The notes below the pieces were generated by a model that saw only the letters and a program-made list of their open reading frames with translations, was not told the DNA's origin and searched no databases. Source: a virus (taxonomy: Duplodnaviria > Heunggongvirae > Uroviricota > Caudoviricetes). From it: DNA of 32,441 nt. This document shows, one piece after another, positions 9,154 to 31,538 of the stretch. The first letter of the stretch is position 1. The number at the start of each line of letters is the position of its first letter. Location: IMG/VR virus record IMGVR_UViG_2541047895_000011. One strand, 5' to 3'. Position numbers and translations under genes: made by a program.

Positions 9154-9158
9154 GATGT

Positions 9159-12993: not shown

Positions 12994-13051
12994 CCGGCGT
13001 CAGTCAGTCCGGGAAAACCTTCACGATTAACCCTTAATTTCAGGAAAAACT

Positions 13052-14125: not shown

Positions 14126-14128
14126 CCG

Positions 14129-14872: not shown

Positions 14873-14971
14873 CAACCGAATGCGCCCCGCGCCAGGGCGG
14901 CACGCCGGTCAGTGACGGTGAATTACCTGACACTGCACCGGCGTCCACCGCCCGACTTTTCAGAGGTAGTC

Positions 14972-15684: not shown

Positions 15685-15687
15685 CGC

Positions 15688-15969: not shown

Positions 15970-16466
15970 TGCCGGTAATTAACACGCATCAGAATATCGC
16001 CGCCTTTCTCGACATGCTGGCCGTGTCCGAAGGGACGGCGAATCATCCGCTGACGAAAAACCGGGGCTATGACGTGATAGTCACCGGACTGGACGGAAAG
16101 CCGGAAATCTTCACCGACTACAGTGACCACCCGTTCGCACATGGCCGACCGGCGAAGGTGTTTAACCGTCGCGGTGAAAAATCCACGGCCTCCGGTCGCT
16201 ATCAGCAGCTTTACCTGTTCTGGCCGCACTACCGCAAACAGCTTGCCCTGCCGGATTTCAGTCCGTTGTCACAGGACAGACTTGCCATTCAGTTGATCCG
16301 CGAACGCGGTGCACTGGATGACATCCGGGCGGGACGTATTGAGCGCGCCATTTCACGCTGTCGCAATATCTGGGCGTCCCTGCCGGGTGCCGGTTACGGT
16401 CAGCGTGAGCATTCACTGGAAAAACTGGTCACCGTCTGGCGTACCGCCGGCGGCGTACCGGCTTAA
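15969..16466 (+). CDS. K: Endolysin, P2 gpK-like
   Basis: 165 aa, follows the holin; size and position of P2 K. Confidence 0.85.
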   Translation: MPVINTHQNIAAFLDMLAVSEGTANHPLTKNRGYDVIVTGLDGKPEIFTDYSDHPFAHGRPAKVFNRRGEKSTASGRYQQLYLFWPHYRKQLALPDFSPLSQDRLAIQLIRERGALDDIRAGRIERAISRCRNIWASLPGAGYGQREHSLEKLVTVWRTAGGVPA

Positions 16467-16480
16467 ACGGAGTAAACACC

Positions 16481-16906
16481 ATGAAGAAATTATCCCTTTC
16501 ACTGATGCTGAACGTGTCGCTGGCGCTGATGCTGGCACTGTCCCTGATTTACCCGCAGAGCGTGGCCGTCAGTTTTGTCGCTGCCTGGGCGATTCTGGCG
16601 ACGGTTATCTGTGTGGTTGCCGGTGGTGTCGGCGTGTATGCCACTGAGTATGTGCTGGAACGCTACGGGCGGGAGCTGCCGCCGGAATCGCTGGCCGTGA
16701 AGATTGTCACGTCGCTGTTTTTGCAGCCGGTGCCGTGGCGCAGACGGGCGGCGGCTCTGGTGGTGATGGTGGTGACGTTTATCTCGCTGGTCGCTGCCGG
16801 GTGGATTTTTACCGCGCTGATTTATCTCGTGGCGTCGGTGTTCTTCCGGCTGATACGTACGGCCTGCCGTCAGCGGTTTGAGGGGCGGGAACCATGTCAA
16901 AGCTGA
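16481..16906 (+). CDS. lysA: Lysis accessory membrane protein LysA
   Basis: 141 aa with several hydrophobic helices; position of P2 lysA. Confidence 0.75.
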   Translation: MKKLSLSLMLNVSLALMLALSLIYPQSVAVSFVAAWAILATVICVVAGGVGVYATEYVLERYGRELPPESLAVKIVTSLFLQPVPWRRRAAALVVMVVTFISLVAAGWIFTALIYLVASVFFRLIRTACRQRFEGREPCQS

Positions 16907-17319
16907 TGATTGTGCTGGTTGTGTTGTTATCGCTGGCGGTGGCGGGACTGTTTCTGGTGAAGCATGAAAACGCCAGCCTGCGCGTCTCGCTGGACAGGGC
17001 AAACAATGTCGCCAGCGGGCAGCAGACGACCATCACCATGCTGAAAAACCAGCTTCATGTTGCCCTTACCAGGGCAGACAAAAACGAGCTGGCGCAGGTG
17101 GCACTGCGTCAGGAACTGGAGAACGCCGCGAAACGTGAAGCACAGCGCGAGAAAACCATCACGAGGTTACTTAATGAAAACGAGGATTTTCGCCGCTGGT
17201 ATGGCACTGACCTGCCTGATGCTGTGCGCCGGTTGCACCAGCGCCCGGCCTGCACCGACGCCAGTGATTGTCGCCAACGCCTGCCCGAAAGTGAGCCTTT
17301 GCCCGATGCCGGGCAGTGA
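16894..17319 (+). CDS. lysB: Lysis protein LysB (Rz-like spanin component)
   Basis: 141 aa with an N-terminal transmembrane segment then a charged coiled-coil-like region; position of P2 lysB. Confidence 0.75.
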   Translation: MSKLMIVLVVLLSLAVAGLFLVKHENASLRVSLDRANNVASGQQTTITMLKNQLHVALTRADKNELAQVALRQELENAAKREAQREKTITRLLNENEDFRRWYGTDLPDAVRRLHQRPACTDASDCRQRLPESEPLPDAGQ

Positions 17320-17464
17320 CCCGGAGACGAACGGCGATTTAAGTGCCGATATCCGGCAGCTTGAGAACGCGCTGGCACGCTGTGCCAGCCAGGTAAAAAT
17401 GATTAAACACTGTCAGGACGAAAACGATGCTCAAACCCGACAGCCTGCGCAGGGCACTGACTGA
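17174..17464 (+). CDS. lysC: Lysis protein LysC (Rz1-like lipoprotein), starts inside lysB in another frame
   Basis: ATG at 17174 with a GAGG Shine-Dalgarno; 96 aa beginning MKTRIFAAGMALTCLMLCAGC (lipoprotein-type signal with lipobox Cys). Confidence 0.65.
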   Translation: MKTRIFAAGMALTCLMLCAGCTSARPAPTPVIVANACPKVSLCPMPGSDPETNGDLSADIRQLENALARCASQVKMIKHCQDENDAQTRQPAQGTD

Positions 17465-17894
17465 TGCCGTCACGGTGCTGAAAACCAGCCCCGAGATGCT
17501 GCGGATATTCGTGGATAACGGGAGTATTGCCTCCACACTGGCTGCGTCGCTGTCATTCGAAAAGCGTTACACGCTCAATGTCATTGTGACCGACTTTACC
17601 GGTGATTTTGACCTGCTTATTGTGCCGGTGCTGGCGTGGCTGCGGGAAAATCAGCCCGACATCATGACCACCGACGAAGGCCAGAAAAAGGGCTTCACGT
17701 TTTATGCAGACATCAACAATGACAGCAGCTTTGATATCAGCATCAGCCTGATGTTGACCGAGCGCACGCTGGTCAGTGAGGTGGACGGCGCGCTGCATGT
17801 GAAGAATATCCCGGAACCCACGCCGCCGGAGCCGGTCACCCGCCCGATAGAGCTTTATATCAATGGCGAACTGGTGAGCAAGTGGGATGAATGA
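17427..17894 (+). CDS. R: Tail completion protein, P2 gpR-like
   Basis: 155 aa; position and size of P2 R. Confidence 0.8.
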   Translation: MLKPDSLRRALTDAVTVLKTSPEMLRIFVDNGSIASTLAASLSFEKRYTLNVIVTDFTGDFDLLIVPVLAWLRENQPDIMTTDEGQKKGFTFYADINNDSSFDISISLMLTERTLVSEVDGALHVKNIPEPTPPEPVTRPIELYINGELVSKWDE

Positions 17895-18339
17895 GTTTAA
17901 GCGTTTTGAAGACCAGCTGACCGGACTTATTGAGTCGCTGTCACCGTCAGGGCGTCGGCGGCTGAGTGCAGAGCTGGCGAAGCGTCTGCGGCAGAGTCAG
18001 CAGCGTCGGGTGATGGCACAGAAAGCCCCGGACGGCACACCCTACGCGCCACGCCAGCAGCAGAGCGCCAGAAAAAAGACCGGTCGTGTTAAGCGAAAAA
18101 TGTTTGCGAAACTTATCACCAGTCGTTTTTTGCATATCCGCGCCAGCCCGGAACAGGCATCAATGGAATTTTACGGCGGGAAGTCGCCGAAAATCGCCAG
18201 TGTGCATCAGTTCGGTCTGTCGGAAGAAACCCGGAAAGACGGTAAGAAAATTGATTATCCGGCGCGTCCTCTGCTCGGCTTTACCGGTGAGGATGTGCAG
18301 ATGATTGAAGAGATTATTCTGGCTCACCTCGACCGTTAG
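17887..18339 (+). CDS. S: Tail completion protein, P2 gpS-like
   Basis: 150 aa; position and size of P2 S. Confidence 0.8.
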   Translation: MNEFKRFEDQLTGLIESLSPSGRRRLSAELAKRLRQSQQRRVMAQKAPDGTPYAPRQQQSARKKTGRVKRKMFAKLITSRFLHIRASPEQASMEFYGGKSPKIASVHQFGLSEETRKDGKKIDYPARPLLGFTGEDVQMIEEIILAHLDR

Positions 18340-18405
18340 TTGTGCCATTCCTGACACCTCATCGTCACATTGCCGCCGGTATGACCCGGCGGCATCCTTC
18401 CCGTT

Positions 18406-19041
18406 ATGAACACTCTCGCAAATATTCAGGAACTCGCGCGCGCACTGCGCAACATGATTCGCACCGGCATTATCGTCGAAACCGACCTTAACGCCGGTCG
18501 CTGCCGCGTGCAGACCGGCGGCATGTGCACCGACTGGCTTCAGTGGCTGACCCATCGCGCAGGACGTTCGCGCACATGGTGGGCACCTTCCGTGGGGGAG
18601 CAGGTGCTGATTCTGGCCGTGGGCGGTGAACTCGACACGGCGTTCGTTCTGCCGGGGATTTATTCCGGCGATAACCCCGCGCCGTCTGCATCGGCGGATG
18701 CCCTGCATATCCGTTTCCCTGACGGGGCGGTGATTGAGTATGAACCTGAAACCAGTGCGCTCACGGTAAGCGGAATTAAAACGGCCAGCGTGACGGCTTC
18801 TGATTCTGTTACTGCCACGGTGCCGGTGGTCATGGTGAAAGCGTCAACCCGCATCACCCTGGACACACCGGAGGTGGTCTGCACCAACAGGCTGATTACC
18901 GGCACGCTGGAAGTACAGAAGGGCGGGACGATGCGCGGCAACATTGAACACACCGGCGGTGAACTCTCATCAAACGGTAAGGTACTGCATACCCATAAAC
19001 ACCCCGGCGACAGCGGCGGCACAACCGGGAGTCCTCTATGA
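18406..19041 (+). CDS. V: Baseplate spike protein, P2 gpV-like
   Basis: 211 aa; position and size of P2 V. Confidence 0.85.
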   Translation: MNTLANIQELARALRNMIRTGIIVETDLNAGRCRVQTGGMCTDWLQWLTHRAGRSRTWWAPSVGEQVLILAVGGELDTAFVLPGIYSGDNPAPSASADALHIRFPDGAVIEYEPETSALTVSGIKTASVTASDSVTATVPVVMVKASTRITLDTPEVVCTNRLITGTLEVQKGGTMRGNIEHTGGELSSNGKVLHTHKHPGDSGGTTGSPL

Positions 19042-19385
19042 CAGCACGTTATCTCGGAATGAATCGCAGTGATGGCCTGACTGTCACTGACCTTGAGCAT
19101 ATCAGCCAGAGTATCGGCGATATCCTGCGCACGCCGGTCGGCTCACGGGTGATGCGTCGTGATTACGGCTCGTTGCTGGCGTCAATGATTGACCAGCCGC
19201 AGACCCCGGCGCTTGAGTTGCAGATTAAGGTCGCCTGTTACATGGCGGTGCTGAAATGGGAACCCCGCGTCACCCTGTCATCCGTCACCACTGAGCGCAG
19301 TTTTGACGGGCGAATGACGGTCACGTTAACCGGCCAGCACAACGACACCGGCCAGTCACTTTCGTTAACCATCCCTGTGAGTTGA
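19038..19385 (+). CDS. W: Baseplate wedge protein, P2 gpW-like
   Basis: 115 aa; overlaps the V stop; position and size of P2 W. Confidence 0.85.
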   Translation: MTARYLGMNRSDGLTVTDLEHISQSIGDILRTPVGSRVMRRDYGSLLASMIDQPQTPALELQIKVACYMAVLKWEPRVTLSSVTTERSFDGRMTVTLTGQHNDTGQSLSLTIPVS

Positions 19386-19389
19386 AACC

Positions 19390-20298
19390 ATGCCGATTAT
19401 CGACCTGAACCAGCTACCCGCACCGGATGTGGTCGAAGAGCTGGACTTTGAAACCATTCTTGCCGAACGCAAGGCGACACTGATTTCCCTTTACCCGGAA
19501 GACCAGCAGGAGGCGGTCGCCCGTACCCTGACGCTGGAATCCGAGCCTCTCGTCAAACTGCTGGAGGAAAATGCTTATCGTGAGCTTATCTGGCGTCAGC
19601 GTGTGAATGAGGCCGCACGGGCGGTGATGCTGGCCTGTGCTGCCGGTAATGACCTTGATGTGATTGGTGCCAATTACAACACCACGCGCCTGACTATCAC
19701 CCCGGCAGATGATTCGACCCTCCCGCCGACACCGGCAGTGATGGAGTCTGACACCGATTATCGTCTGCGTATTCAGCAGGCGTTTGAAGGTTTAAGCGTC
19801 GCCGGGTCGGTGGGTGCCTATCAGTATCATGGTCGAAGTGCCGACGGGCGTGTCGCGGATATCTCTGTCACCAGTCCGTCTCCGGCCTGCGTCACCATCT
19901 CTGTGCTGTCACGTGAAAATAACGGTGTTGCATCCGAAGACCTGCTGGCCGTGGTGCGTAACGCCCTTAATGGCGAGGACGTCAGGCCGGTGGCCGACCG
20001 CGTGACCGTACAGTCTGCCGCCATTGTTGAATACCAGATAAACGCCACGCTTTACCTTTACCCAGGCCCCGAAAGCGAACCCATCCGCGCTGCCGCCGTG
20101 AAAAAACTGGAAGCGTATATCACGGCACAGCACCGGCTGGGGCGCGACATCCGTCTGTCTGCCATTTATGCCGCTTTGCATGTGGAAGGTGTGCAGCGTG
20201 TCGAACTGGCTGCACCGCTGGCCGATATCGTGCTTAACAGCACGCAGGCGTCTTTCTGTACCGAATACCGCGTCGTGACCGGAGGCTCGGATGAGTGA
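19390..20298 (+). CDS. J: Baseplate protein, P2 gpJ-like
   Basis: 302 aa; position and size of P2 J. Confidence 0.85.
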   Translation: MPIIDLNQLPAPDVVEELDFETILAERKATLISLYPEDQQEAVARTLTLESEPLVKLLEENAYRELIWRQRVNEAARAVMLACAAGNDLDVIGANYNTTRLTITPADDSTLPPTPAVMESDTDYRLRIQQAFEGLSVAGSVGAYQYHGRSADGRVADISVTSPSPACVTISVLSRENNGVASEDLLAVVRNALNGEDVRPVADRVTVQSAAIVEYQINATLYLYPGPESEPIRAAAVKKLEAYITAQHRLGRDIRLSAIYAALHVEGVQRVELAAPLADIVLNSTQASFCTEYRVVTGGSDE

Positions 20299-20821
20299 TT
20301 CGCGACTGCTGCCGACCGGCTCATCACCGCTTGAGGTAGCCGCCGCAAAAGCCTGTGCGGAAATTGAAAAAACACCGGTCAGTATTCGTGAGCTGTGGAA
20401 CCCGGACACCTGCCCGGCAAATCTGCTGCCGTGGCTGGCGTGGGCGTTTTCGGTCGACAGATGGGATGAAAAGTGGCCGGAAGCGACAAAACGCGCCGTT
20501 ATCCGCGATGCGTATTTCATCCACTGTCATAAAGGCACTATAGGTGCAATCCGGCGTGTGGTGGAGCCGCTCGGCTATCTCATCAACGTGACGGAGTGGT
20601 GGGAAAACAGTGACCCGCCCGGCACCTTCCGGCTTGATATTGGTGTACTGGAAAGTGGCATCACAGAGGCAATGTATCAGGAAATGGAACGGCTGATTGC
20701 TGATGCCAAACCTGCAAGCCGTCACCTTATTGGCCTGAACATTACCCGGGACATTCCCGGCTACCTGTTCGCCGGTGGTGTGGCTTACGACGGCGATGTA
20801 ATTACGGTTTACCCCGGATAA
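20291..20821 (+). CDS. I: Baseplate protein, P2 gpI-like
   Basis: 176 aa; overlaps the J stop; position and size of P2 I. Confidence 0.85.
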   Translation: MSDSRLLPTGSSPLEVAAAKACAEIEKTPVSIRELWNPDTCPANLLPWLAWAFSVDRWDEKWPEATKRAVIRDAYFIHCHKGTIGAIRRVVEPLGYLINVTEWWENSDPPGTFRLDIGVLESGITEAMYQEMERLIADAKPASRHLIGLNITRDIPGYLFAGGVAYDGDVITVYPG

Positions 20822-20831
20822 GTGAGGAATA

Positions 20832-23024
20832 ATGAGCACAAAATTCAGAACCGTTATCACCACTGCCGGTGCAGCAAAGCTGGCAGCGGCAACCGCACCG
20901 GGAGGGCGGAAGGTCAACATTACCACGATGGCCGTCGGGGATGGCGGTGGTAAATTGCCTGTCCCGGATGCCGGACAGACCGGGCTTATCCACGAAGTCT
21001 GGCGACATGCGCTGAACAAAATCAGTCAGGACAAACGAAACAGTAATTATATTATCGCAGAGCTGGTTATTCCGCCGGAGGTGGGCGGTTTCTGGATGCG
21101 TGAGCTTGGCCTGTACGATGATGCGGGAACGCTAATTGCCGTGGCAAACATGGCCGAAAGTTATAAACCAGCTCTTGCCGAAGGCTCAGGGCGTTCGCAG
21201 ACCTGCCGCATGGTCATCATCGTCAGCAGTGTGGCCTCAGTGGCGTTGACTATTGACACCACAACGGTGATGGCGACGCAGGATTACGTTGATGACAAAA
21301 TTGCAGAGCACGAACAGTCACGACGTCACCCGGACGCTTCGCTGACCGCAAAAGGTTTTACTCAGTTAAGCAGCGCGACCAACAGCACGTCTGAAACACT
21401 GGCCGCAACGCCGAAAGCGGTAAAGGCCGCATATGACCTTGCTAACGGGAAATATACTGCACAGGATGCCACTACAGCGCGAAAAGGTCTTGTCCAGCTC
21501 AGTAGTGCCACCAACAGCACGTCTGAAACGCTCGCCGCAACACCAAAAGCGGTTAAGGCAGCGTATGACCTTGCTAACGGGAAATACACTGCACAGGACG
21601 CCACCACAGCGCGAAAAGGCCTTGTCCAGCTCAGTAGCGCCACCAACAGCGATTCTGAAACGCTTGCGGCAACGCCAAAGGCGGTAAAAGCAGCATATGA
21701 CCTTGCTAACGGGAAATATACCGCACAGGACGCCACCACAGCGCGAAAAGGCCTTGTCCAGCTCAGTAGCGCCACCAACAGCGATTCTGAAACGCTTGCA
21801 GCAACGCCAAAGGCGGTTAAGACAGCGTATGACCTTGCTAACGGGAAATACACTGCGCAGGATGCCACCACGGCACGGAAAGGCCTTGTCCAGCTCAGTA
21901 GCGCCACCAACAGCGATTCTGAAACGCTTGCAGCAACGCCAAAGGCGGTTAAGACAGCGTATGACCTTGCTAACGGGAAATACACTGCGCAGGATGCCAC
22001 CACGGCACGGAAAGGCCTTGTCCAGCTCAGTAGCGCCACCAACAGTGATTCTGAAACGCTGGCCGCAACACCAAAAGCAGTGAAGTCTGCCTATGACAAT
22101 GCTGAAAAACGTCTTCAGAAAGATCAGAACGGTGCGGATATTCCGGGAAAGGATACCTTCACGAAAAATATCGGTGCCTGTCGTGCTTATAGCGGCGCTT
22201 TGAGCACTGAAGCCGGAAACTGGACAACCGCTCAGTTTATTGAATGGCTGGATTCCCGTGGTGCATTTAATCATCCGTACTGGATGTGCAAATGTTCATG
22301 GTCATACGGCAATAATAAAATTATTACCGATACTGGCTGTGGAACTATTCATCTTGCAGGTTGCGTTATTGAGGTTATGGGTAATAAAGGTGCCATGACC
22401 ATCCGTGTAACAACACCAAGCACTTCCACCGGAGGCGGCACCACTAACGCTCAATTCACTTATATTAATCATGGTGATGCTTATGCCCCCGGCTGGCGAC
22501 GAGACTACAACACGAAAAACCAGCAGCCTGCATTTGCTTTAGGGCAAACAGGAAGCAGGGTTGCAAATGATAAAGCTGTTGGCTGGAACTGGAATAGCGG
22601 TGTTTATGATGCAGATATCAGCGGTGCATCGACATTAATCCTCCACTTCAATATGAATGCGGGGAGTTGCCCTGCCGTACAGTTCCGTGTGAATTATAAG
22701 AACGGCGGTATTTTTTATCGTTCAGCACGTGATGGTTATGGATTTGAGGCTGACTGGTCAGAGTTTTACACCACAACCCGCAAACCCTCTGCGGGAGATG
22801 TTGGTGCATATACCAAAGCTGAATCGGATTCTCGCTATGTACGAGATATTCGCCTGGGCACACGTGTTGTTCAGACTATGCAAAAAGGTGTGATGTATGA
22901 AAAATCAGGCCATGTAATTACAGGGCTTGGTATTGTCGGTGAAGTCGATGGTGATGACCCCGCAGTATTCAGACCAATACAAAAATACATCAATGGCACA
23001 TGGTATAACGTCGTACAGGTGTAA
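20832..23024 (+). CDS. H: Tail fibre protein, P2 gpH-like, with an internal tandem repeat array and an AT-rich C-terminal domain
   Basis: 730 aa; P2-like N-terminal part, then six in-frame 44-aa repeats, then a Cys-containing C-terminal domain of lower GC. Confidence 0.9.
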   Translation: MSTKFRTVITTAGAAKLAAATAPGGRKVNITTMAVGDGGGKLPVPDAGQTGLIHEVWRHALNKISQDKRNSNYIIAELVIPPEVGGFWMRELGLYDDAGTLIAVANMAESYKPALAEGSGRSQTCRMVIIVSSVASVALTIDTTTVMATQDYVDDKIAEHEQSRRHPDASLTAKGFTQLSSATNSTSETLAATPKAVKAAYDLANGKYTAQDATTARKGLVQLSSATNSTSETLAATPKAVKAAYDLANGKYTAQDATTARKGLVQLSSATNSDSETLAATPKAVKAAYDLANGKYTAQDATTARKGLVQLSSATNSDSETLAATPKAVKTAYDLANGKYTAQDATTARKGLVQLSSATNSDSETLAATPKAVKTAYDLANGKYTAQDATTARKGLVQLSSATNSDSETLAATPKAVKSAYDNAEKRLQKDQNGADIPGKDTFTKNIGACRAYSGALSTEAGNWTTAQFIEWLDSRGAFNHPYWMCKCSWSYGNNKIITDTGCGTIHLAGCVIEVMGNKGAMTIRVTTPSTSTGGGTTNAQFTYINHGDAYAPGWRRDYNTKNQQPAFALGQTGSRVANDKAVGWNWNSGVYDADISGASTLILHFNMNAGSCPAVQFRVNYKNGGIFYRSARDGYGFEADWSEFYTTTRKPSAGDVGAYTKAESDSRYVRDIRLGTRVVQTMQKGVMYEKSGHVITGLGIVGEVDGDDPAVFRPIQKYINGTWYNVVQV
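21352..22098. repeat. Six tandem copies of a 132-bp (44-codon) unit inside H, the phage tail-fibre repeat
   Basis: The motif ACCAACAGC recurs at 21378, 21510, 21642, 21774, 21906 and 22038, exactly 132 bp apart; units 4 and 5 appear identical; the encoded unit is GLVQLSSATNS(T/D)SETLAATPKAVK(A/T)AYDLANGKYTAQDATTARK. Confidence 0.9.
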
Positions 23025-23027
23025 TTT

Positions 23028-23555
23028 ATGCAGCATTTAAAAAATATTACTGCGGGTAATCCCAAAACTATTGCCCAATATCAACTGACAAAAAATTTTG
23101 ATGTTATCTGGTTATGGTCTGAAGACGGAAAAAACTGGTATGAGGAAGTAAGTAATTTTCAGGAAGACACGATAAAGATTGTTTACGACGAGAATAATAT
23201 AATTGTCGGCATCACCAGAGATGCTTCAACGCTTAACCCTGAAGGTTTTAGCGTTGTCGAGGTTCCTGATATTACCGCCAACCGACGTGCGGATGACTCA
23301 GGTAAATGGATGTTTAAGGATGGTGCCGTGATTAAGCGGATTTATACGACAGACGAACAGCAGCAACTGGCAGAATCACAAAAGGCAACTTTACTTTCCG
23401 AAGCTGAATCCGTGATTTTGCCGCTGGAGCGCGCTGTCAGGCTGAATATGGCAACAGATGAGGAACGCAGCCGACTGGAAGCATGGGAACGCTACAGCGT
23501 TCTGGTCAGCCGTGTGGATCCTGCAAATCCTGAATGGCCGGAAATGCCGCAATAA
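23028..23555 (+). CDS. G: Tail fibre assembly chaperone, P2 gpG-like
   Basis: 175 aa immediately after H; size and position of P2 G. Confidence 0.85.
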
Positions 23556-23776
23556 GTTGTATAAGCTCTGGTGTGAGATTACATATCTATGGCACAGAGT
23601 AAAGCCTAATCTGACAGGCCGCTCTGTGTCTGGAGTAGATTTTAGTAAAGCATTATTTCATTAGTGCAAATTCTAAACAATACATTTTATGTATATGATA
23701 TCCTGCGGACTTTAATGACTTGGTTTAGGCTAACCAGATAACACTGAAGGAATATTTTTGATAATTAAGGTGCGGT

Positions 23777-24370
23777 ATGTTTACTAAGCGACGATTAAAA
23801 AATATTAACTGGGAGGCAAGTTCAGTGATTCTTGCTATGGTTCTCTTTGTTGGAAATATATTTTATACAAATCATCGTGATGATATAAGCATGGAGGCTG
23901 AGAGAGACAGTATCAGAACAATGTTTGCATATGAAATCGCTAATAACCATCGCGCTCTCACTTTTCTTGATAAAACGAGAAATATTGGCTTTGACGAAAA
24001 TTCGGAGCATTTTGTTGGCGAGCCTTTTGCCATTAATGTCGAATCATTAGGAGGGCCTCGCTTACAGATTGCATTAAACCAGACTGATAAAGTTTTTAAA
24101 GCCTACTTCAGTGAATTAAGTAAACTTGATAAAGAGGATGTTACTCTTCTTATGGACTATTACCATGAGCAAAGCATCCTGCTGGAGTGTGTAAAATCTA
24201 CGTTAGAGAAGATGAAAAGCAATAATGATATTAAAGTTGATATTGATGGTTACTTATTAGAAGAACACTTCATGAATGAGTTTAATCTTTCTAATATTTT
24301 GCTTAAACGCTATAGCCATTTGTTGTCACAACACCTCAAAAAACCTGAAACAAAAGATTTACATAATTGA
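23777..24370 (+). CDS. Hypothetical membrane-anchored protein at the P2 Z/fun cargo position
   Basis: 197-aa ORF in an AT-rich island between G and FI; N-terminal hydrophobic segment (SSVILAMVLFVGNIFY); a terminator hairpin follows downstream; no motif I recognise. Confidence 0.6.
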   Translation: MFTKRRLKNINWEASSVILAMVLFVGNIFYTNHRDDISMEAERDSIRTMFAYEIANNHRALTFLDKTRNIGFDENSEHFVGEPFAINVESLGGPRLQIALNQTDKVFKAYFSELSKLDKEDVTLLMDYYHEQSILLECVKSTLEKMKSNNDIKVDIDGYLLEEHFMNEFNLSNILLKRYSHLLSQHLKKPETKDLHN

Positions 24371-24577
24371 TGATCTGCTAATGGTTATTCATGGGATAAC
24401 TATGTTTTATATGTAATCCAACTCAGATGAATTATTGATTCTGGATAATAACCGCAGAGCGGCATATACCCTGACAGGCAAATGTCCGCTTCTTGCTCAA
24501 AGCAGACTGTCAGATTTGATAACTTTTGGGTTATGTAAATTGTCAGTCGGAAAATGAGTGTGTGCAAATCAGGACAG

Positions 24578-24600
24578 GCGGGCGAATTGCCCGCTTTTTC
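24578..24600 (+). terminator. Rho-independent terminator downstream of the Z/fun-position ORF
   Basis: Hairpin GCGGGC-GAATT-GCCCGC followed by TTTTTCTTT. Confidence 0.65.
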
Positions 24601-24699
24601 TTTATCTGTTGTTTCATCCCCTGACCAGCCAGCTCAAATAGCGTCTCATGCTTTGCACAACAGAAAATAGTTGCACCCATTAACCACGGAGTTAAACGG

Positions 24700-25890
24700 A
24701 TGAGTGACTATCATCACGGCGTGCAGGTGCTGGAGATTAACGACGGCACCCGCGTCATTTCCACCGTATCCACCGCCATTGTCGGCATGGTCTGCACGGC
24801 CAGCGATGCGGATGCGGAAACCTTCCCCCTCAATAAACCGGTGCTGATTACCAATGTGCAGAGCGCAATTGCAAAGGCCGGTAAAAAAGGCACGCTGGCG
24901 GCATCGTTGCAGGCCATCGCCGACCAGTCAAAACCGGTCACCGTTGTCGTGCGTGTGGAAGACGGCACCGGCGACGACGAGGAAGCGAAACTCGCGCAGA
25001 CCGTTTCCAATATCATCGGCACCACTGACGAAAACGGTCAGTACACCGGACTGAAAGCCCTGATGGGGGCTGAGTCGGTTACCGGCGTTAAACCGCGCAT
25101 TCTTGGTGTGCCGGGGCTGGACACCAAAGAGGTTGCCGTCGCACTGGCATCGGTATGCCAGGAACTGAATGCATTCGGGTATATCAGCGCATGGGGCTGT
25201 AAAACCATTTCCGAGGTGAAAGCCTACCGCCAGAATTTCAGCCAGCGTGAGCTGATGGTTATCTGGCCGGATTTCCTCGCATGGGATACGGTCACCAGTA
25301 CCACCGCCACCGCGTATGCCACCGCCCGTGCGCTGGGGCTGCGCGCTAAAATCGACCAGGAGCAGGGCTGGCATAAAACGCTGTCCAACGTCGGGGTAAA
25401 CGGTGTTACCGGCATCAGTGCATCTGTATTCTGGGATTTGCAGAAGTCTGGCACTGATGCTGACCTGCTGAACGAGGCAGGCGTCACAACGCTGGTTCGC
25501 CGCGACGGTTTCCGTTTCTGGGGTAACCGTACCTGCTCCGATGACCCACTGTTCCTCTTTGAAAGCTACACACGCACTGCGCAGGTACTGGCCGACACGA
25601 TGGCTGAGGCGCACATGTGGGCTATTGATAAGCCCATCACCGCAACGCTGATTCGCGACATCATTGACGGCATCAATGCCAAATTCCGCGAACTGAAAAA
25701 CAACGGTTATATCGTGGATGGCACATGCTGGTTCAGTGAAGAATCCAACGATGCGGAAACCCTCAAGGCCGGAAAACTGTATATCGACTACGACTATACA
25801 CCGGTGCCTCCTCTCGAAAACCTGACCCTGCGCCAGCGTATTACTTCCAGATACCTGGCAAGTCTGGTCACCTCGGTTAACAGCAATTAA
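24700..25890 (+). CDS. FI: Tail sheath protein, P2 gpFI-like
   Basis: 396 aa; size and position of P2 FI. Confidence 0.9.
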   Translation: MSDYHHGVQVLEINDGTRVISTVSTAIVGMVCTASDADAETFPLNKPVLITNVQSAIAKAGKKGTLAASLQAIADQSKPVTVVVRVEDGTGDDEEAKLAQTVSNIIGTTDENGQYTGLKALMGAESVTGVKPRILGVPGLDTKEVAVALASVCQELNAFGYISAWGCKTISEVKAYRQNFSQRELMVIWPDFLAWDTVTSTTATAYATARALGLRAKIDQEQGWHKTLSNVGVNGVTGISASVFWDLQKSGTDADLLNEAGVTTLVRRDGFRFWGNRTCSDDPLFLFESYTRTAQVLADTMAEAHMWAIDKPITATLIRDIIDGINAKFRELKNNGYIVDGTCWFSEESNDAETLKAGKLYIDYDYTPVPPLENLTLRQRITSRYLASLVTSVNSN

Positions 25891-25902
25891 GGAGCCTGAC
25901 CG

Positions 25903-26421
25903 ATGGCAATGCCGCGCAAACTCAAGTTAATGAACGTCTTTCTGAACGGCTACAGCTATCAGGGCGTCGCGAAGTCCGTCACGCTGCCAAAACTGACCCG
26001 TAAGCTCGAAAACTATCGCGGTGCGGGGATGAACGGCAGCGCACCGGTAGACCTCGGCCTTGATGATGATGCTCTGTCAATGGAGTGGTCGCTTGGGGGC
26101 TTCCCGGATTCGGTTATCTGGGAGCTTTACGCCGCAACCGGCGTGGATGCCGTGCCGATTCGTTTTGCCGGTTCTTACCAGCGCGACGATACCGGCGAAA
26201 CGGTGGCCGTCGAAGTGGTCATGCGTGGACGTCAGAAAGAAATCGACACCGGCGAGGGTAAACAGGGAGAAGACACCGAGTCGAAAATCTCCGTGGTCTG
26301 CACCTATTTCCGGCTGACGATGGACGGTAAGGAGCTGGTCGAAATTGACACCATCAACATGATTGAGAAGGTGAACGGCGTCGACCGGCTGGAGCAACAC
26401 CGCCGCAATATCGGCCTGTGA
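25903..26421 (+). CDS. FII: Tail tube protein, P2 gpFII-like
   Basis: 172 aa; size and position of P2 FII. Confidence 0.9.
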   Translation: MAMPRKLKLMNVFLNGYSYQGVAKSVTLPKLTRKLENYRGAGMNGSAPVDLGLDDDALSMEWSLGGFPDSVIWELYAATGVDAVPIRFAGSYQRDDTGETVAVEVVMRGRQKEIDTGEGKQGEDTESKISVVCTYFRLTMDGKELVEIDTINMIEKVNGVDRLEQHRRNIGL

Positions 26422-26477
26422 TTTTCATCCGGTCAGCCTGGCTGACCGGTTAACCCCGATTCATAAGTGAGAAAACC

Positions 26478-26753
26478 ATGAACAAAGAAAATGTGATTAC
26501 CCTGGACAATCCGGTCAAACGTGGTGAGCAGGTCATCGAACAGGTCACGCTGATGAAACCCAGTGCGGGGACGCTGCGCGGTGTCAGTCTGGCCGCGGTC
26601 GCAAACTCCGAAGTCGATGCACTGATTAAAGTGCTGCCGCGCATGACGGCACCGATGCTGACCGAGCAGGAGGTCGCCGCACTGGAACTGCCTGACCTTG
26701 TGGCGCTGGCCGGTAAGGTGGTCGGTTTTTTGTCGCCGAACTCGGTGCAGTGA
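26478..26753 (+). CDS. E: Tail assembly chaperone E (zero-frame product)
   Basis: 91 aa; ends just after a GGTTTTTTG slippery motif. Confidence 0.85.
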   Translation: MNKENVITLDNPVKRGEQVIEQVTLMKPSAGTLRGVSLAAVANSEVDALIKVLPRMTAPMLTEQEVAALELPDLVALAGKVVGFLSPNSVQ

Positions 26754-26905
26754 CGTTCCCGAAAAATCTCTCGGTCGATGACCTGATGGCGGATGTGGCA
26801 GTGATATTTCACTGGCCGCCATCAGAACTGTATCCCATGAGCCTGACCGAACTCATCACATGGCGCGAAAAGGCGCTCCGGCGAAGCGGAAACACGAATG
26901 AGTAA
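26478..26905 (+). CDS. Tail assembly chaperone E+E' (predicted programmed -1 frameshift product, about 142 aa)
   Basis: T-run slippery site at about 26726..26732 near the 3' end of E; the -1 frame stays open and terminates at the TAA at 26903..26905, which overlaps the T start codon; total length matches P2 E+E'. End coordinate inferred from the T start and carries about 1 nt uncertainty from hand counting. Confidence 0.55.
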
Positions 26906-29345
26906 CAATGTAAAATTACAGGTATTGCTCAGGGCTGTTGACCAGGCATCCCGCCCGTTTAAATCCATCCGCACAGCGAGTAAGTCGCTGTCGGGGGATA
27001 TCCGGGAAACACAAAAATCACTGCGCGAGCTGAACGGTCACGCATCCCGTATTGAGGGATTCCGCAAGACCAGTGCGCAGCTCGCCGTGACTGGTCATGC
27101 ACTTGAAAAGGCACGGCAGGAAGCCGAAGCCCTTGCCACACAGTTTAAAAACACCGAACGTCCGACCCGTGCTCAGGCGAAAGTGCTGGAATCCGCAAAG
27201 CGAGCGGCGGAGGACTTACAGGCGAAATATAACCGCCTGACGGATTCCGTTAAACGCCAGCAGCGGGAACTGGCCGCTGTGGGAATTAATACCCGCAATC
27301 TTGCACATGATGAGCAGGGACTGAAAAACCGTATCAGTGAAACCACAGCACAGCTTAACCGTCAGCGCGACGCGCTGGCGCGTGTCAGTGCGCAACAGGC
27401 AAAACTTAACGCAGTAAAACAGCGTTATCAGGCCGGAAAGGAACTGGCCGGAAATATGGCCTCAGTGGGCGCTGCCGGTGTGGGGATTGCTGCTGCGGGA
27501 ACGATGGCCGGAGTTAAGCTGCTGATGCCCGGTTATGAGTTTGCGCAGAAAAACTCAGCATTGCAGGCCGTGCTCGGAGTGGCAAAAGACTCCGCCGAAA
27601 TGGCCGCGCTCCGCAAACAGGCGCGCCAGCTCGGCGACAACACCGCCGCCTCGGCGGACGATGCAGCCGGTGCGCAGATTATCATTGCGAAAGCGGGTGG
27701 AGATGCTGCGGCTATTCAGGCGGCAACGCCGGTCACGCTGAATATGGCACTGGCGAATCAGCGGTCGATGGAAGAAAACGCGCAACTGTTGCTGGGGACT
27801 AAGGCATCCTTTCAACTGTCAAATGATGATGTCAGCCATGTGGGCGACGTGTTGTCGGCAACGATGAATAAGTCGGCGGCTGATTTTCAGGGACTCAGTG
27901 ATGCACTGACTTACCTCGGTCCGGTTGCGAGGACGGCAGGTGTAAGTCTTGAGCAGGCAGCGGCCATGACAGGTGTGCTGCATGACAATAACATCAGGGG
28001 GTCAATGGCGGGTACGGGGAGTAGTGCCGTTGTCACCCGATTACAGGCTCCGACAGGGAAAGCATGGGAAGCACTAAAAGAGCTTGGCGTTAAAACCTCG
28101 GACAAAAAGGGAAATATGCGTCCGTTGTTCACCATTCTGAAAGAGATTCAGGCCAGCTTTGATAAACACAAGCTGGGAACGTCTCAGAAGGGGGAATACC
28201 TTAAAACCATTTTTGGTGAGGAAGCCCTGAAATCAGCGAACGTTTTACTGGCAGCGGCTGCAAGCGGAAAACTGGATAAGCTGACCGCCACGCTGAAAGC
28301 CTCGGACGGTAAAACGGAAGAGCTGGTTAAAATCATGCAGGATAACCTCGGCGGTGACTTTAAGGAGTTTCAGTCTGCTTATGAGGCGGTGGGGACAGAC
28401 CTGTTTGACCAGCAGGAAGGCGCACTGCGTAAGCTCACTCAGACGGCCACAAAGTATGTGTTAAAACTCGACGGCTGGATCCAGAAAAACAAATCACTGG
28501 CGTCAACCATCGGCCTCATTGTCGGTAGCGCACTGGCGCTTACTGGCATCATCGGTGCCATTGGTCTTGTAGCCTGGCCGGTTATCACCGGCATCAATGC
28601 CATTATCGCGGCAGCAGGCGCAATGGGGGCAATCTTCACGACGGTTGGCAGTGCTGTTATGACGGCCATCGGGGCGATTAGCTGGCCGGTTGTGGCCGTG
28701 GTGGCCGCCATTGTCGCCGGGGCGTTGCTTATCCGTAAATACTGGGAGCCTGTCAGCGCATTCTTTGGCGGTGTGGTTGAAGGGCTGAAAGCGGCATTTG
28801 CGCCGGTGGGGGAACTGTTCACGCCACTGAAGCCGGTGTTTGACTGGCTGGGCGAAAAGTTACAGGCCGCGTGGCAGTGGTTTAAAAACCTGATTGCCCC
28901 CGTCAAAGCCACCCAGGACACCCTGAACCGTTGCCGTGACACGGGCGTCATGTTCGGGCAGGCACTGGCTGACGCGTTGATGCTGCCGCTTAATGCGTTC
29001 AACAAACTGCGCAGTGGTATTGACTGGGTACTGGAAAAACTCGGTGTTATCAACAAAGAGTCAGACACACTTGACCAGACCGCCGCAAGGACTCATGCCG
29101 CCACGTATGGCACCGGTGGTTATATTCCGGCGACCAGCTCTTATGCAGGCTATCAGGCTTATCAGCCGGTCACGGCACCGGCTGGCCGCTCTTATGTGGA
29201 CCAGAGTAAAAACGAATATCACATCAGCCTGACGGGTGGTACTGCGCCGGGGACACAGCTTGACCGCCAGTTACAGGATGCGCTCGAAAAATACGAGCGG
29301 GATAAACGTGCGCGCGCCCGTGCCAGCATGATGCATGACGGTTAA
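26898..29345 (+). CDS. T: Tail tape measure protein, P2 gpT-like
   Basis: 815 aa, identical in length to P2 T; coiled-coil N-terminal part, Gly/Ala-rich hydrophobic central segment. Confidence 0.9.
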   Translation: MSNNVKLQVLLRAVDQASRPFKSIRTASKSLSGDIRETQKSLRELNGHASRIEGFRKTSAQLAVTGHALEKARQEAEALATQFKNTERPTRAQAKVLESAKRAAEDLQAKYNRLTDSVKRQQRELAAVGINTRNLAHDEQGLKNRISETTAQLNRQRDALARVSAQQAKLNAVKQRYQAGKELAGNMASVGAAGVGIAAAGTMAGVKLLMPGYEFAQKNSALQAVLGVAKDSAEMAALRKQARQLGDNTAASADDAAGAQIIIAKAGGDAAAIQAATPVTLNMALANQRSMEENAQLLLGTKASFQLSNDDVSHVGDVLSATMNKSAADFQGLSDALTYLGPVARTAGVSLEQAAAMTGVLHDNNIRGSMAGTGSSAVVTRLQAPTGKAWEALKELGVKTSDKKGNMRPLFTILKEIQASFDKHKLGTSQKGEYLKTIFGEEALKSANVLLAAAASGKLDKLTATLKASDGKTEELVKIMQDNLGGDFKEFQSAYEAVGTDLFDQQEGALRKLTQTATKYVLKLDGWIQKNKSLASTIGLIVGSALALTGIIGAIGLVAWPVITGINAIIAAAGAMGAIFTTVGSAVMTAIGAISWPVVAVVAAIVAGALLIRKYWEPVSAFFGGVVEGLKAAFAPVGELFTPLKPVFDWLGEKLQAAWQWFKNLIAPVKATQDTLNRCRDTGVMFGQALADALMLPLNAFNKLRSGIDWVLEKLGVINKESDTLDQTAARTHAATYGTGGYIPATSSYAGYQAYQPVTAPAGRSYVDQSKNEYHISLTGGTAPGTQLDRQLQDALEKYERDKRARARASMMHDG

Positions 29346-29416
29346 GGAGGTGACGAAAAATGATGCTCGCGTTAGGTATGTTTGTTTTTATGCGCCAGAC
29401 GCTGCCACACTAGACC

Positions 29417-29839
29417 ATGCAGCGTGAATCAGATTATCGCTGGCCGTCAAATTCCCGTATCGGCAAACGGGATGCCTTTCAATTTCTCGGTGTGGGTGAG
29501 GAAAACATCACGCTGGCCGGTGTGCTTTATCCCGAACTGACCGGCGGCAAGCTGACGATGACCACGCTCAGGCTGATGGCAGAGGAAGGTCGGGCGTGGC
29601 CGTTGCTGGATGGCACCGGCATGATTTACGGCATGTATGTCATCAGTAAGGTGAGTGAAACAGGGAGTATTTTCTTTGCAGACGGCACACCCCGAAAAAT
29701 TGATTTTACGCTGTCGCTCACCCGCGTTGATGAATCACTGGCCGCGCTTTATGGCGATATCGGTAAACAGGCGGAATCGCTCATCGGTAAGGCTGGCAGT
29801 ATGGCGACTAAATTCACGGGTATGACGGAGGCGGGATAA
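29417..29839 (+). CDS. U: Tail protein U-like; C-terminal 140 codons of a 159-codon frame interrupted by an in-frame TAG at 29411..29413
   Basis: Track ORF starts at the ATG at 29417; a strong AAGGAGG Shine-Dalgarno at 29344..29350 serves an upstream in-frame ATG at 29360 (MMLALGMFVFMRQTLPH-stop-TMQRESD...); 29360..29839 would give 159 aa, the size of P2 U. Confidence 0.8.
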   Translation: MQRESDYRWPSNSRIGKRDAFQFLGVGEENITLAGVLYPELTGGKLTMTTLRLMAEEGRAWPLLDGTGMIYGMYVISKVSETGSIFFADGTPRKIDFTLSLTRVDESLAALYGDIGKQAESLIGKAGSMATKFTGMTEAG

Positions 29840-31002
29840 TGCTGGATGCGCTGACATTTGATGCAGGCAGTACGCTGACGCCGGATTATATGCTGATGCT
29901 CGACAGCAGGGATATTACCGGCAATATCAGCGACCGTCTGATGAGCATGACCCTGACCGATAACCGGGGCTTTGAGGCTGACCAGCTTGATATTGAACTG
30001 AACGATGCCGACGGGCAGGTCGAGCTGCCGATTCGTGGCGCTGTCCTGACGGTGTATATCGGCTGGAAAGGTTTTGCCCTGGTATGCAAAGGGAAATTTA
30101 CCGTTGATGAGGTTGAACACCGGGGCGCGCCGGATGTGGTCACCATCCGCGCCCGGAGTGCAGATTTTCGCGGGACGCTCAATTCCCGCCGTGAAGGCTC
30201 ATGGCATGCCACCACACTCGGTGCGATTGTTGAGGCGATAGCCTCCCGTAACAAGCTGGAAGCCAGTGTTGCTCCGTCACTGGCCGGAATTAAAATCCCG
30301 CACATCGACCAGTCGCAGGAGTCCGATGCGAAATTCCTGACCCGCCTTGCTGAACGCAACGGCGGTGAGGTGTCGGTAAAAATGGGAAAACTGTTGTTTC
30401 TCAAAGCGGGGCAGGGGGTGACGGCCAGCGGTAAAAAAATCCCGCAGATTACCATCACCCGCAGCGACGGCGACCGTCATCATTTTGCGATTGCTGACCG
30501 TGGAGCTTACACCGGCGTAACGGCAAAGTGGTTACACACCAAAGACCCGAAGCCACAAAAGCAGAAGGTAAAACTGAAACGCAAAAAGAAAGAGAAACAC
30601 CTGCGCGCACTGGAGCACCCGAAAGCGAAACCGGTCACGCAGAAGAAAGCGCCAAAAGTACCGGAAGCGCGCGAAGGTGAATACATGGCCGGTGAGGCTG
30701 ACAATGTTTTTGCCCTGACCACGGTATATGCCACGAAAGCGCAGGCCATGCGCGCCGCTCAGGCGAAGTGGGATAAACTGCAACGGGGTGTAGCGGAGTT
30801 CTCCATCAGTCTGGCTACTGGTCGGGCAGATATTTACACGGAAACGCCGGTCAAAGTGTCAGGTTTTAAGCGCGTCATAGACGAGCAGGACTGGACAATC
30901 ACTAAGGTGACACACTTTCTGAATAATAGCGGCTTCACGACGTCCTTAGAGCTTGAGGTCAGGCTTTCTGATGTGGAGTACGAAACAGAAGATGATGAGT
31001 GA
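29839..31002 (+). CDS. D: Tail protein D-like (late tail/baseplate protein)
   Basis: 387 aa, identical in length to P2 D; follows U. Confidence 0.9.
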   Translation: MLDALTFDAGSTLTPDYMLMLDSRDITGNISDRLMSMTLTDNRGFEADQLDIELNDADGQVELPIRGAVLTVYIGWKGFALVCKGKFTVDEVEHRGAPDVVTIRARSADFRGTLNSRREGSWHATTLGAIVEAIASRNKLEASVAPSLAGIKIPHIDQSQESDAKFLTRLAERNGGEVSVKMGKLLFLKAGQGVTASGKKIPQITITRSDGDRHHFAIADRGAYTGVTAKWLHTKDPKPQKQKVKLKRKKKEKHLRALEHPKAKPVTQKKAPKVPEAREGEYMAGEADNVFALTTVYATKAQAMRAAQAKWDKLQRGVAEFSISLATGRADIYTETPVKVSGFKRVIDEQDWTITKVTHFLNNSGFTTSLELEVRLSDVEYETEDDE

Positions 31003-31083
31003 TGTTTATTATTTATCTATTTGTTTTATAAGGATAAATTAACTAAAATGGCACCATCAACAAAACCGGAAGAGGTGCTCGCG

Positions 31084-31302
31084 ATGTTTCATTGTCCTTT
31101 ATGCCAGCATGCCGCACATGCGCGTACAAGCCGCTATATCACTGACACGACAAAAGAGCGTTATCACCAGTGTCAGAACGTGAATTGCAGTGCCACGTTC
31201 ATCACTTATGAGTCGGTACAGCGATACATCGTGAAGCCGGGAGAAGTCCACGCCGTAAGGCCGCACCCGTTGCCGTCAGGGCAGCAAATTATGTGGATGT
31301 GA
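31084..31302 (+). CDS. ogr: Late-gene transcriptional activator Ogr (Cys4 zinc finger)
   Basis: Track ORF 31021..31302; the ATG at 31084 gives 72 aa (MFHCPLCQHAAHARTSRYI ... CQNVNCSATF), matching P2 Ogr in size and in its CxxC ... CxxxxC arrangement. Confidence 0.85.
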   Translation: MFHCPLCQHAAHARTSRYITDTTKERYHQCQNVNCSATFITYESVQRYIVKPGEVHAVRPHPLPSGQQIMWM

Positions 31303-31313
31303 TCACAAAAATA

Positions 31314-31338
31314 GCCCCTCAGTTGAGGGGCTTTATTT
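31314..31338 (+). terminator. Rho-independent terminator after ogr
   Basis: Hairpin GCCCCTC-AGTT-GAGGGGC followed by TTTATTT. Confidence 0.7.
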
Positions 31339-31430
31339 ATGGTCGATGTGGACGCTATGTGGACAGTGCTTGATATAAATCCATTTATATCATCATGTTA
31401 GGTGCTTTTTTGTGACACCATCCCTGTCTT

Positions 31431-31457
31431 CCCCCACATGATGTGGGGGTTTTTTTT
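31431..31457 (+). terminator. Rho-independent terminator in the attR/host junction region
   Basis: Hairpin CCCCCACA-TGA-TGTGGGGG followed by eight T; about 80 bp upstream of fieF. Confidence 0.55.
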
Positions 31458-31538
31458 ATCCTCAATTTGCCTGCTGCTTAATGCATTGCAGATGATTTGC
31501 TTCCGTTATACTACCGTCAGTTGATAGCGGGAGTATTT

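Follow-up and report, generated by a model that had tools for sequence, protein, structure and literature searches.

The best-described relative of the locus reported here is gene U of phage P2, whose product gpU (NP_046783.1; protein family PF06995) is annotated as 'essential tail protein' in the P2 record. gpU is the initiator of the tail tube; the inner tube is started by six copies of it that are seated on the gpD hub, and its C-terminal helix contacts the wedge (preprint 10.64898/2026.09.14.750843). A homologous tube-initiator domain is found in PA0626 of pyocin R2 (the 'ripcord' or tube initiator; PDB 6u5b), where the similarity begins at gpU residue 8 (E = 9.5e-13); PA0626 is extended at its N-terminus by a ripcord region (about 150 residues) that has no counterpart in P2-type gpU. 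Laboratory amber mutants of P2 U (Uam25, Uam77, and Uam92) have reportedly been described; with an amber codon in this same essential tail gene, they are expected to form no functional tails on non-suppressing hosts.

Prophage decay by point mutation is a general phenomenon, and restarts of translation downstream of nonsense codons are classical observations in lacI and in T4 rIIB. In E. coli reporter pairs, a gap of +2 nt between stop and start codon kept 30-95% of the reinitiation measured with the native overlap (PMC10666635).

We describe here an amber codon in gene U of a P2-like prophage that is contained in a stretch of 32,441 nt of DNA (IMG/VR record IMGVR_UViG_2541047895_000011), to which we refer in its full length as the window. 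The relevant features are as follows, with positions given for the window.

1..31460, no strand assigned: P2-like (Peduovirus) prophage, from int to attR, between cpxP and fieF (alignment to P2; att repeat)
8971-8989: cos 19-mer, exact match to P2
26898..29345, plus strand: gene T (tape measure), upstream of U, intact, 815 aa
29344..29350, plus strand: Shine-Dalgarno sequence AAGGAGG of gene U, identical in P2, anti-SD duplex of −12.6 kcal/mol, 7 nt before the ATG
29360..29839, plus strand: whole U gene (tube initiator), probably a pseudogene by nonsense mutation (tblastn of P2 gpU; fold of a homologue)
29360..29413, plus strand: 5' remnant of U, made up of 17 sense codons (MMLALGMFVFMRQTLPH) and closed by the amber codon; its 51 nt of sense sequence equal P2 U
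29411..29413, plus strand: TAG (amber), formerly CAG (Gln18), by a C-to-T transition at 29411; sole change in 111 nt relative to P2 and FDAARGOS_1261
29417..29839, plus strand: residual ORF of 140 aa (gpU residues 20-159), lacking a Shine-Dalgarno sequence, possible product of termination-reinitiation
29839..31002, plus strand: gene D (baseplate hub), downstream of U, intact, 387 aa, with its own Shine-Dalgarno sequence; its ATG overlaps the U stop codon (TAATG)
31084-31302: ogr
31414-31460: attR copy of the 47-bp att repeat (direct substring search)

An amber codon interrupts the reading frame of gene U

An earlier inspection of the DNA (the sequence-only reading) had proposed that the AAGGAGG motif serves the ATG at position 29360 and that this frame, apart from a TAG at codon 18, is that of a P2-type tail gene U of 159 codons. 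Our analysis bears this out. The frame opens with the ATG at 29360 (a further ATG is present at 29363), ends with the TAA at 29837-29839, and spans 480 nt, that is 159 codons plus the stop codon, as does P2 U (positions 22312-22791 of the P2 genome). When P2 gpU was used as a tblastn query, its residues 1-159 could be aligned to the U locus without a gap, with 97.5% identity over the 159 positions and with exactly one stop codon. The gene order T-U-D-ogr and the overlap of the U stop codon with the start of D are shared with P2, and within the F operon, U lies after T (tape measure) and before D (hub). Scores against the PF06995 profile were 149.6 bits for the restored 159-aa protein and 133.3 bits for the 140-aa remnant (cut-off: 27.5).

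The alignment with P2 U that had been suggested as a check shows CAG at codon 18 in P2 and TAG here. From the Shine-Dalgarno sequence through the spacer to codon 17, the identity with P2 U is 100%, and a 111-nt alignment with both P2 and the nearest relative, FDAARGOS_1261, contains a single difference, the C-to-T exchange at 29411. Since the 5' part equals P2 U and is separated from it by this one exchange only, the continuity of the frame across the TAG is not a matter of chance. We considered a Dcm hotspot as the origin of the transition and rejected it, since direct reading of the site (CACCAGACC) showed that it is not a CCWGG sequence.

The next in-frame ATG (29417) follows 3 nt after the stop codon (TAG-ACC-ATG), and it has no Shine-Dalgarno sequence of its own, as had been noted before: the calculated anti-SD duplex amounts to 0 kcal/mol at this ATG, compared with −12.6 kcal/mol at the native U start and −9.5 kcal/mol at the start of D.

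Distribution of the amber allele

TAG was read directly in 10 independent assemblies of this prophage type, produced by various centers with various technologies (the window, NZ_CP027550.1, and those labeled L005, L006, L008/L014, L009, and L015-L018), and CAG in none of them. When the prophage type was anchored by exact matches to its T and D proteins, TAG copies only were recovered; the closest prophage apart from these shows 97.6% identity. The exact 140-aa U product is encoded on 61 public contigs (93 collection blocks searched), with accessions reaching back to an assembly of 2013. A scan of 5,426 complete genomes revealed a T at this position of U in just one of the 1,587 E. coli genomes with a P2-like U; this carrier (NZ_CP027550.1) contains a single U copy and no second one. 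All 119 close homologues (119/119) possess Gln18. The window is not the RefSeq record itself, since its prophage and that of NZ_CP027550.1 differ by a 132-nt repeat unit and by two single-base indels. Judged from the genomes compared, the amber mutation in U is real, derived, rare, and fixed in this prophage type.

Integrity and chromosomal site of the prophage

All other essential P2 proteins align over their full length and without stop codons when used as tblastn queries against the prophage. Its ori is 98%, the pP/pO region 99%, and pF 74% identical to the P2 counterparts, and the 47-bp att repeats are both present and perfect. The Ogr-site consensus TGT-N12-ACA is no more frequent in the window than expected by chance. 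As far as can be read from the DNA, the U stop codon is the only visible lesion of the prophage. Of the term 'cryptic or defective prophage' used in the sequence-only reading, 'cryptic' overstates the case, U being the sole lesion seen.

Descent from a laboratory P2 was rejected on the grounds of a C repressor that is 43% identical to that of P2; int, C, and cox together range from 43 to 52% identity, and the cargo genes and the integration site differ as well. The prophage carries a gene for a C5 methyltransferase, and its GmrSD_N/HEPN gene pair matches known defense-system models.

Each TAG copy is located at the same chromosomal site, between cpxP and fieF, and two carriers share 100% identity over 8.6 kb of chromosomal flank, as is characteristic of vertical inheritance. 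One metagenome contig contains the same prophage with a flank that diverges only beyond pfkA. From these flanks, the prophage type appears to reside essentially in a single E. coli clone, although in view of the diverged metagenome contig its carriers need not be strictly clonal.

The N-terminus of gpU is conserved across the family

The PF06995 profile starts at gpU residue 6, and the 140-aa remnant matches it from profile position 15 onward (positions 15-120 are kept). In an alignment of 104 distant homologues, residues 1-10 belong to the most strongly conserved blocks; the N-terminal segment is kept in 101 of these proteins, Gly6 is found in 102, and Phe10 in 97. An AF2 model of the close homologue P0001, computed from a 94-sequence alignment that included distant representatives, reached a pLDDT of 87 (92 over residues 1-20) and predicts beta-strands at residues 3-5, 8-10, and 19-27. 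An earlier model derived from 32 sequences, all at least 73% identical, was discarded (pLDDT 58; N-terminus below 50). The predicted beta-sandwich resembles the fold of other tube initiators: the best Foldseek match was 6u5b_g (E = 1.4e-10; TM 0.71; 31% identity), and the PVC, Afp, diffocin, and T4 baseplate initiators followed.

Homologues that naturally begin at the counterpart of the ATG at 29417 would have pointed to a shorter native protein, but the 101 distant homologues with a retained N-terminus speak against this, and position 20 is variable, with Met in 46/119 of the close and 12/104 of the distant homologues and Leu in most proteins. The stretch L5-G6-x-F8-x-F10...Q18 is not part of an uninterrupted ORF at the U locus, and since the TAG interrupts an ORF with a conserved N-terminus, we regard the locus as a gpU pseudogene and not as a functional member of the family.

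A genuine nonsense mutation probably renders the prophage tail-defective

The evidence favors a real nonsense mutation in an essential prophage tail gene. We put the probability at roughly 0.8 that U carries a genuine heritable mutation (CAG for Gln18 to TAG by a single C-to-T exchange), with a probably tail-defective prophage as its consequence. Ribosomes recruited by the strong native Shine-Dalgarno sequence would stop after 17 codons, and full-length gpU would be made only at trace levels, via spontaneous read-through of the UAG codon. Some of the terminating ribosomes may restart 3 nt further on and produce a 140-aa protein without residues 1-19. This fragment is unlikely to nucleate a tube since it would lack beta-strands 1 and 2 along with the best-conserved motif of the fold, and the prophage would therefore probably make no normal tails, while replication, DNA packaging, and lysis could probably still take place.

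We infer that the prophage was recently disabled and has been passed on vertically, an ordinary first step of prophage decay. It shares with prophages rendered defective by point mutation the single inactivating mutation in a structural gene, the otherwise complete gene set, and the vertical transmission in a host clone. What distinguishes it from such prophages in general is the very early stage of decay, with one lesion, and with att, cos, ori, and the other genes intact. Unlike the laboratory amber mutants of P2, its U allele is a natural one that is fixed in wild isolates and combined with another immunity module.

Translational restart, suppression, and read-through

It is unlikely, in our view, that the prophage is throttled rather than dead, with a few infectious phages arising through trace read-through or through a partly active restart product. 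For the second of these routes to rescue the phage fully, termination-reinitiation at 29417 would have to yield a working 140-aa gpU without residues 1-19, and thereby a viable prophage. The short distance of 3 nt between stop and start resembles that of E. coli termination-reinitiation pairs, for which reinitiation was efficient in reporters, 30-95% of the coupling being kept at +2 nt (PMC10666635). Furthermore, the fragment retains positions 15-120 of PF06995 together with the wedge-contacting C-terminal helix, and the persistence of the TAG allele is documented by at least 60 assemblies. This persistence is equally well explained by vertical inheritance in one clone, however, and the duplex energy of 0 kcal/mol before 29417, the loss of two beta-strands (pLDDT 92) along with the near-invariant Gly6 and Phe10, the retention of the N-terminus in nearly all distant homologues, and the variable residue at position 20, mostly Leu, all argue against a functional product. 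Evolved termination-reinitiation pairs combine a short stop-start distance with a conserved restart codon and a Shine-Dalgarno sequence in the upstream ORF; only the distance is found at U, where a restart would be accidental, would initiate at an unconserved Met, and would give a product cut within the conserved domain. While synthesis of a truncated gpU by restart is mechanistically plausible on the basis of this spacing, and residual activity of it is possible, a full rescue is improbable. It is also a possibility that the truncated gpU could poison tail assembly of superinfecting P2-like phages.

Suppression by the host, the remaining proposal of this kind in the sequence-only reading, was tested in one carrier genome for five tRNA types (supD/E/F/P/U). 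In NZ_CP027550.1, glnX and glnV (locus found by synteny) are wild type with a CUG anticodon, and tRNA genes of the supF, supD, supP, and supU types are absent; these types of suppression are thereby ruled out for this complete-genome carrier. The supE-type query matched 158 genomes, and known supE laboratory strains were among the matches listed, which validates the method. No tRNA gene was found in the prophage. Several points favor leaky read-through by a near-cognate tRNA-Gln: a UAG codon followed by A, as in U, is a context that promotes read-through, insertion of Gln would restore the wild-type residue and thus the wild-type protein, and just six gpU copies are needed per virion. Basal read-through, however, should not exceed about 1% (a textbook value). 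A low yield of normal phage through Gln insertion at UAG-A is thus possible, while a phage made conditionally viable by suppression or read-through is very improbable.

It is likewise very doubtful that the loss of U was favored by selection, as opposed to neutral hitch-hiking, with immunity and defense cargo retained and virion production abolished. The C5 methyltransferase and the GmrSD_N/HEPN pair aboard the prophage, its otherwise intact state, and the fixation of the allele in the lineage are compatible with such a domestication. Yet knockout of a tail gene leaves induction, replication, and lysis possible and would hardly protect the host, selection is not required for fixation in one clone, and no independent recurrence was seen among the 1,587 complete genomes with a P2-like U. 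Sequencing or assembly error, raised in the sequence-only reading, and a programmed recoding signal are a priori possibilities of negligible probability: two errors in homopolymers are likely at other sites of the prophage in the complete RefSeq genome, but the same base in ten independent assemblies from different centers and technologies rules out an error, and programmed read-through would call for a stop codon conserved among homologues, in place of which all 119 close ones have Gln and one complete genome in 1,587 a T.

Implications for prophage annotation and decay

The practical value of the finding lies in annotation, and its biological importance is small. In RefSeq, the 140-aa remnant appears as an ordinary 'phage tail protein' (WP_021560128.1), and the gene is missing from other annotations, so that prophage-completeness tools would call the element intact. 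At the same time, the prophage presents a clean and datable case of how prophage decay begins, the mutation being fixed in an E. coli clone that circulates naturally. If the prophage were throttled after all, its U gene would represent a natural 'leaky amber' that acts, in a wild clone of E. coli, as an attenuator of virion production. One base away from the wild type, the locus offers a natural isogenic system in which one may ask if a tube initiator can do without its N-terminal strands.

An amber codon interrupts the tail gene U

The sequence-only reading had described an in-frame TAG at codon 18 of U, and this description was accurate, since the Shine-Dalgarno sequence, the native start, the stop and the following in-frame ATG are all present in the window:

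29344-29350, plus strand: Shine-Dalgarno sequence of U (AAGGAGG)
29360, plus strand: native start codon of U (ATG)
17 codons from 29360, plus strand: sense codons before the stop (MMLALGMFVFMRQTLPH)
29411-29413, plus strand: amber codon 18 of U (TAG), followed by ACC
29417, plus strand: next ATG in the U frame, after TAG-ACC
29837-29839, plus strand: end of the U frame (TAA); the frame is open from 29417

When the TAG is bridged, the full frame comprises 480 nt and equals P2 gene U (22312-22791) in length, as had been suspected; its continuity across the stop is no coincidence. A 111-nt alignment of the window, P2, FDAARGOS_1261 (the nearest relative in a complete genome) and strain 2015C-4136CT1 (a second carrier) around this site contains one variable column, with C in P2 and FDAARGOS_1261 and T in the window and 2015C-4136CT1; hence, a single transition converted CAG (Gln18) into TAG. 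All 119 close homologues (74-98% identity) have Gln at position 18 of gpU, as do 65 of the 104 distant homologues.

The TAG is shared by one essentially clonal group of carriers

A 601-nt query against 5,426 complete E. coli genomes gave one 100% match, NZ_CP027550.1 (strain 2015C-4136CT1; human stool, USA). The window is not this record itself, as it carries one extra 132-nt repeat unit and lacks two single-base deletions. The 140-aa protein encoded by the residual open reading frame has exact copies in 93 indexed blocks of the public assembly collection and on 61 contigs. TAG was found in all nine further loci read as DNA (NZ_CP027550.1, L005, L006, L008/L014, L009, L015, L016, L017 and L018), which were anchored on this U remnant or on the exact T and D proteins of the window prophage; among them are a 2013 assembly (GCA_000460375.1) and a contig from a metagenome. 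A sequencing error, one of four explanations proposed for the TAG, is thereby excluded.

To assess the frequency of the allele, we used a 55-nt query centered on the T, so that each 28-mer megablast seed must cover this base. It matched only NZ_CP027550.1, while P2-like U is present in 1,587 complete genomes; a genome with a flank difference within 27 nt of this base would escape the query. No CAG version of the window prophage was found among the loci located through the U remnant or the exact T or D proteins, or in the complete genomes, where the next most similar prophage has 97.6% identity over 6.85 kb. The carriers are in essence a single clone: 2015C-4136CT1 and GCA_002133935.1 share 8.6 kb of chromosome beyond the prophage at 100% identity. 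In the metagenome contig L006, the prophage and the first 2 kb of flank are identical to L005 except for one SNP (position 4813 in both); from inside pfkA onward (L006 14027-16351, pfkA to cdh), 16 SNPs occur in the chromosome beyond the prophage. Because identity continues past attR, chromosomal recombination or a chimeric contig, rather than fresh lysogenization, is the likely source of this pattern.

The remainder of the prophage appears intact

The P2-like prophage is inserted between cpxP and fieF and retains the following sites:

8971-8989: P2 cohesive end, 19 nt, exact match
31414-31460: attR copy of a 47-bp perfect direct repeat flanking the prophage
L004 1972-2018: attL copy of this repeat, just outside the window

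The repeat (GACACCATCCCTGTCTTCCCCCACATGATGTGGGGGTTTTTTTTATC) spans the cpxP terminator hairpin; integration of the phage therefore takes place at the 3' end of the cpxP transcription unit and restores the terminator. A tblastn search with all P2 proteins recovered Q, P, O, N, M, L, X, Y, K, lysA/B/C, R, S, V, W, J, I, G, FI, FII, E, T, D, ogr and B at full length without gaps or stops; A aligned over 754 of 761 residues, the tail-fiber gene H was mosaic, and a stop codon was seen in U alone. U is the sole lesion that we found in this prophage. The ori matches that of P2 at 98% identity, and the pP/pO region does so at 99%. Conservation extends to the E / E+E' tail-chaperone pair (26478-26905), which contains a P2-type slippery run (GGTTTTTTG, 26724-26732) and whose E protein is 100% identical to P2 gpE. 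Int (52%), C and cox share 43-52% identity with P2, which marks the prophage as another phage of the genus rather than laboratory P2.

H (20832-23024) contains a 132-nt tandem repeat (21372-22097; 5.5 copies, 91% match) with one unit (44 aa) more than in the otherwise identical 2015C-4136CT1, L005 and L006, which reflects either fiber-shaft copy-number variation within a single clone or a collapse of the repeat during short-read assembly. Two variable P2 loci are also occupied. The first (5931-8831), between A and cos/Q, where P2 has orf91/tin/old, carries cargo that probably encodes an anti-phage defense pair plus a methylase:

5931-6977, plus strand: C5 cytosine DNA methyltransferase
6956-7675, minus strand: MAE_28990-type HEPN protein
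7686-8831, minus strand: DUF262/GmrSD_N protein (PADLOC NsnA, 6e-55; PD-T4-2_A, 1e-34)

The second, between G and FI (the Z/fun position), holds a 197-aa open reading frame (23777-24370) with no Pfam or PADLOC match.

The lost N-terminus belongs to the conserved gpU domain

U is annotated as an essential tail protein in the P2 record, and in a P2 cryo-EM structure six gpU copies, seated on the trimeric gpD hub, act as the tube initiator and join this hub to the inner tube (2026 preprint, 10.64898/2026.09.14.750843). The sole solved relative detected by sequence is PA0626 of pyocin R2 (6u5b), whose alignment starts at gpU residue 8. We modeled a full-length homologue (97% identity) with AlphaFold2 from a 94-sequence alignment. 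The model (mean pLDDT 87; 92 for residues 1-20) has strands at 3-5, 8-10 and 19-27 and resembles the tube initiators of pyocin, PVC/Afp, diffocin, Milano, T4 and others. The Pfam GpU profile begins at residue 6, and the 140-aa remnant lacks its first 14 positions. Among 104 distant representatives (<70% identity), Gly6 (102/104) and Phe10 (97/104) are near-invariant, and residues 1-10 rank with the best-conserved blocks of the protein. Together, these results place residues 1-19 inside the conserved domain. Homologues starting naturally at the position of ATG 29417 would have spoken against a nonsense mutation; however, 101 of the 104 distant homologues keep positions 5-18 ungapped, and most homologues have Leu at position 20, where the restart Met would lie; Met stands there in 46 of the 119 close and in 12 of the 104 distant homologues. 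The family therefore does not naturally start at this internal ATG.

Restart, read-through and suppression

Ribosomes loaded at the strong native Shine-Dalgarno sequence of U (anti-SD duplex, -12.6 kcal/mol) would terminate after 17 codons. As had been noted, ATG 29417 lacks such a sequence (0 kcal/mol), and independent initiation there is therefore unlikely. Termination-reinitiation yielding a truncated, 140-aa U had also been proposed and is plausible from the TAG-ACC-ATG arrangement: E. coli reporter pairs show coupling across a 2-nt gap, with 30-95% of native-overlap coupling retained (PMC10666635). Some 140-aa protein is thus probably made by restart; however, it would lack two strands and the hallmark motif, and its function as a tube initiator is for this reason unlikely. 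Since D possesses its own Shine-Dalgarno sequence (-9.5 kcal/mol), D could still be made once its coupling to U is lost.

Basal read-through of the UAG, with tRNA-Gln inserting Gln, could be a second route to gpU. The A after the UAG makes for a comparatively leaky context, and the near-cognate tRNA-Gln would give back the wild-type residue, but basal read-through of UAG is expected to be about 1% or less.

For suppression by the host, centered, anticodon-mutated queries derived from K-12 tRNA genes detected supE-type tRNA-Gln(CUA) in 158 of 5,426 complete E. coli genomes, with C600, DH5alpha, DH1 and J53 as positive controls; the 60 matches listed were laboratory K-12 derivatives or strains of similar size. 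The supF and supD types were each confined to a single laboratory strain, and none of the 5,426 genomes had a supP or supU type. None of these five types was found in the one carrier genome tested, NZ_CP027550.1, whose glnX and glnV genes, located by synteny, both have the anticodon CUG. No tRNA gene was found in the window prophage, and U is single-copy in NZ_CP027550.1, which therefore has no complementing prophage.

An evolved reinitiation pair is rejected, given that ATG 29417 has no Shine-Dalgarno sequence and the restart codon is not conserved. Programmed read-through is rejected because the stop is not conserved among homologues.

A nonsense mutation in an essential tail gene is thus the proposal that stands, carried by the single C-to-T transition and by the TAG in all nine further loci. 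Judged from its sequence, U of the window is a P2-family U gene turned pseudogene by this mutation, a naturally occurring parallel to the classical U amber mutants of P2 from the laboratory.

Consequences for annotation

NZ_CP027550.1 is short by one base at window positions 6605 and 26993, and RefSeq flags its methyltransferase and T as 'frameshifted'. Both bases are present in the window, and the one at 26993 also occurs in L005, L006, L008 and L009, loci that do not reach 6605; the missing bases are probably assembly errors. Unlike these, the U amber lesion carries no flag. In RefSeq the remnant appears as an ordinary 'phage tail protein' of 140 aa, and other annotations leave the gene out, so that automated tools would score the prophage as intact.

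Prophage decay by point mutation is well known, and the U amber is an early instance of it; the finding is real but ordinary. Its one practical point is annotation.
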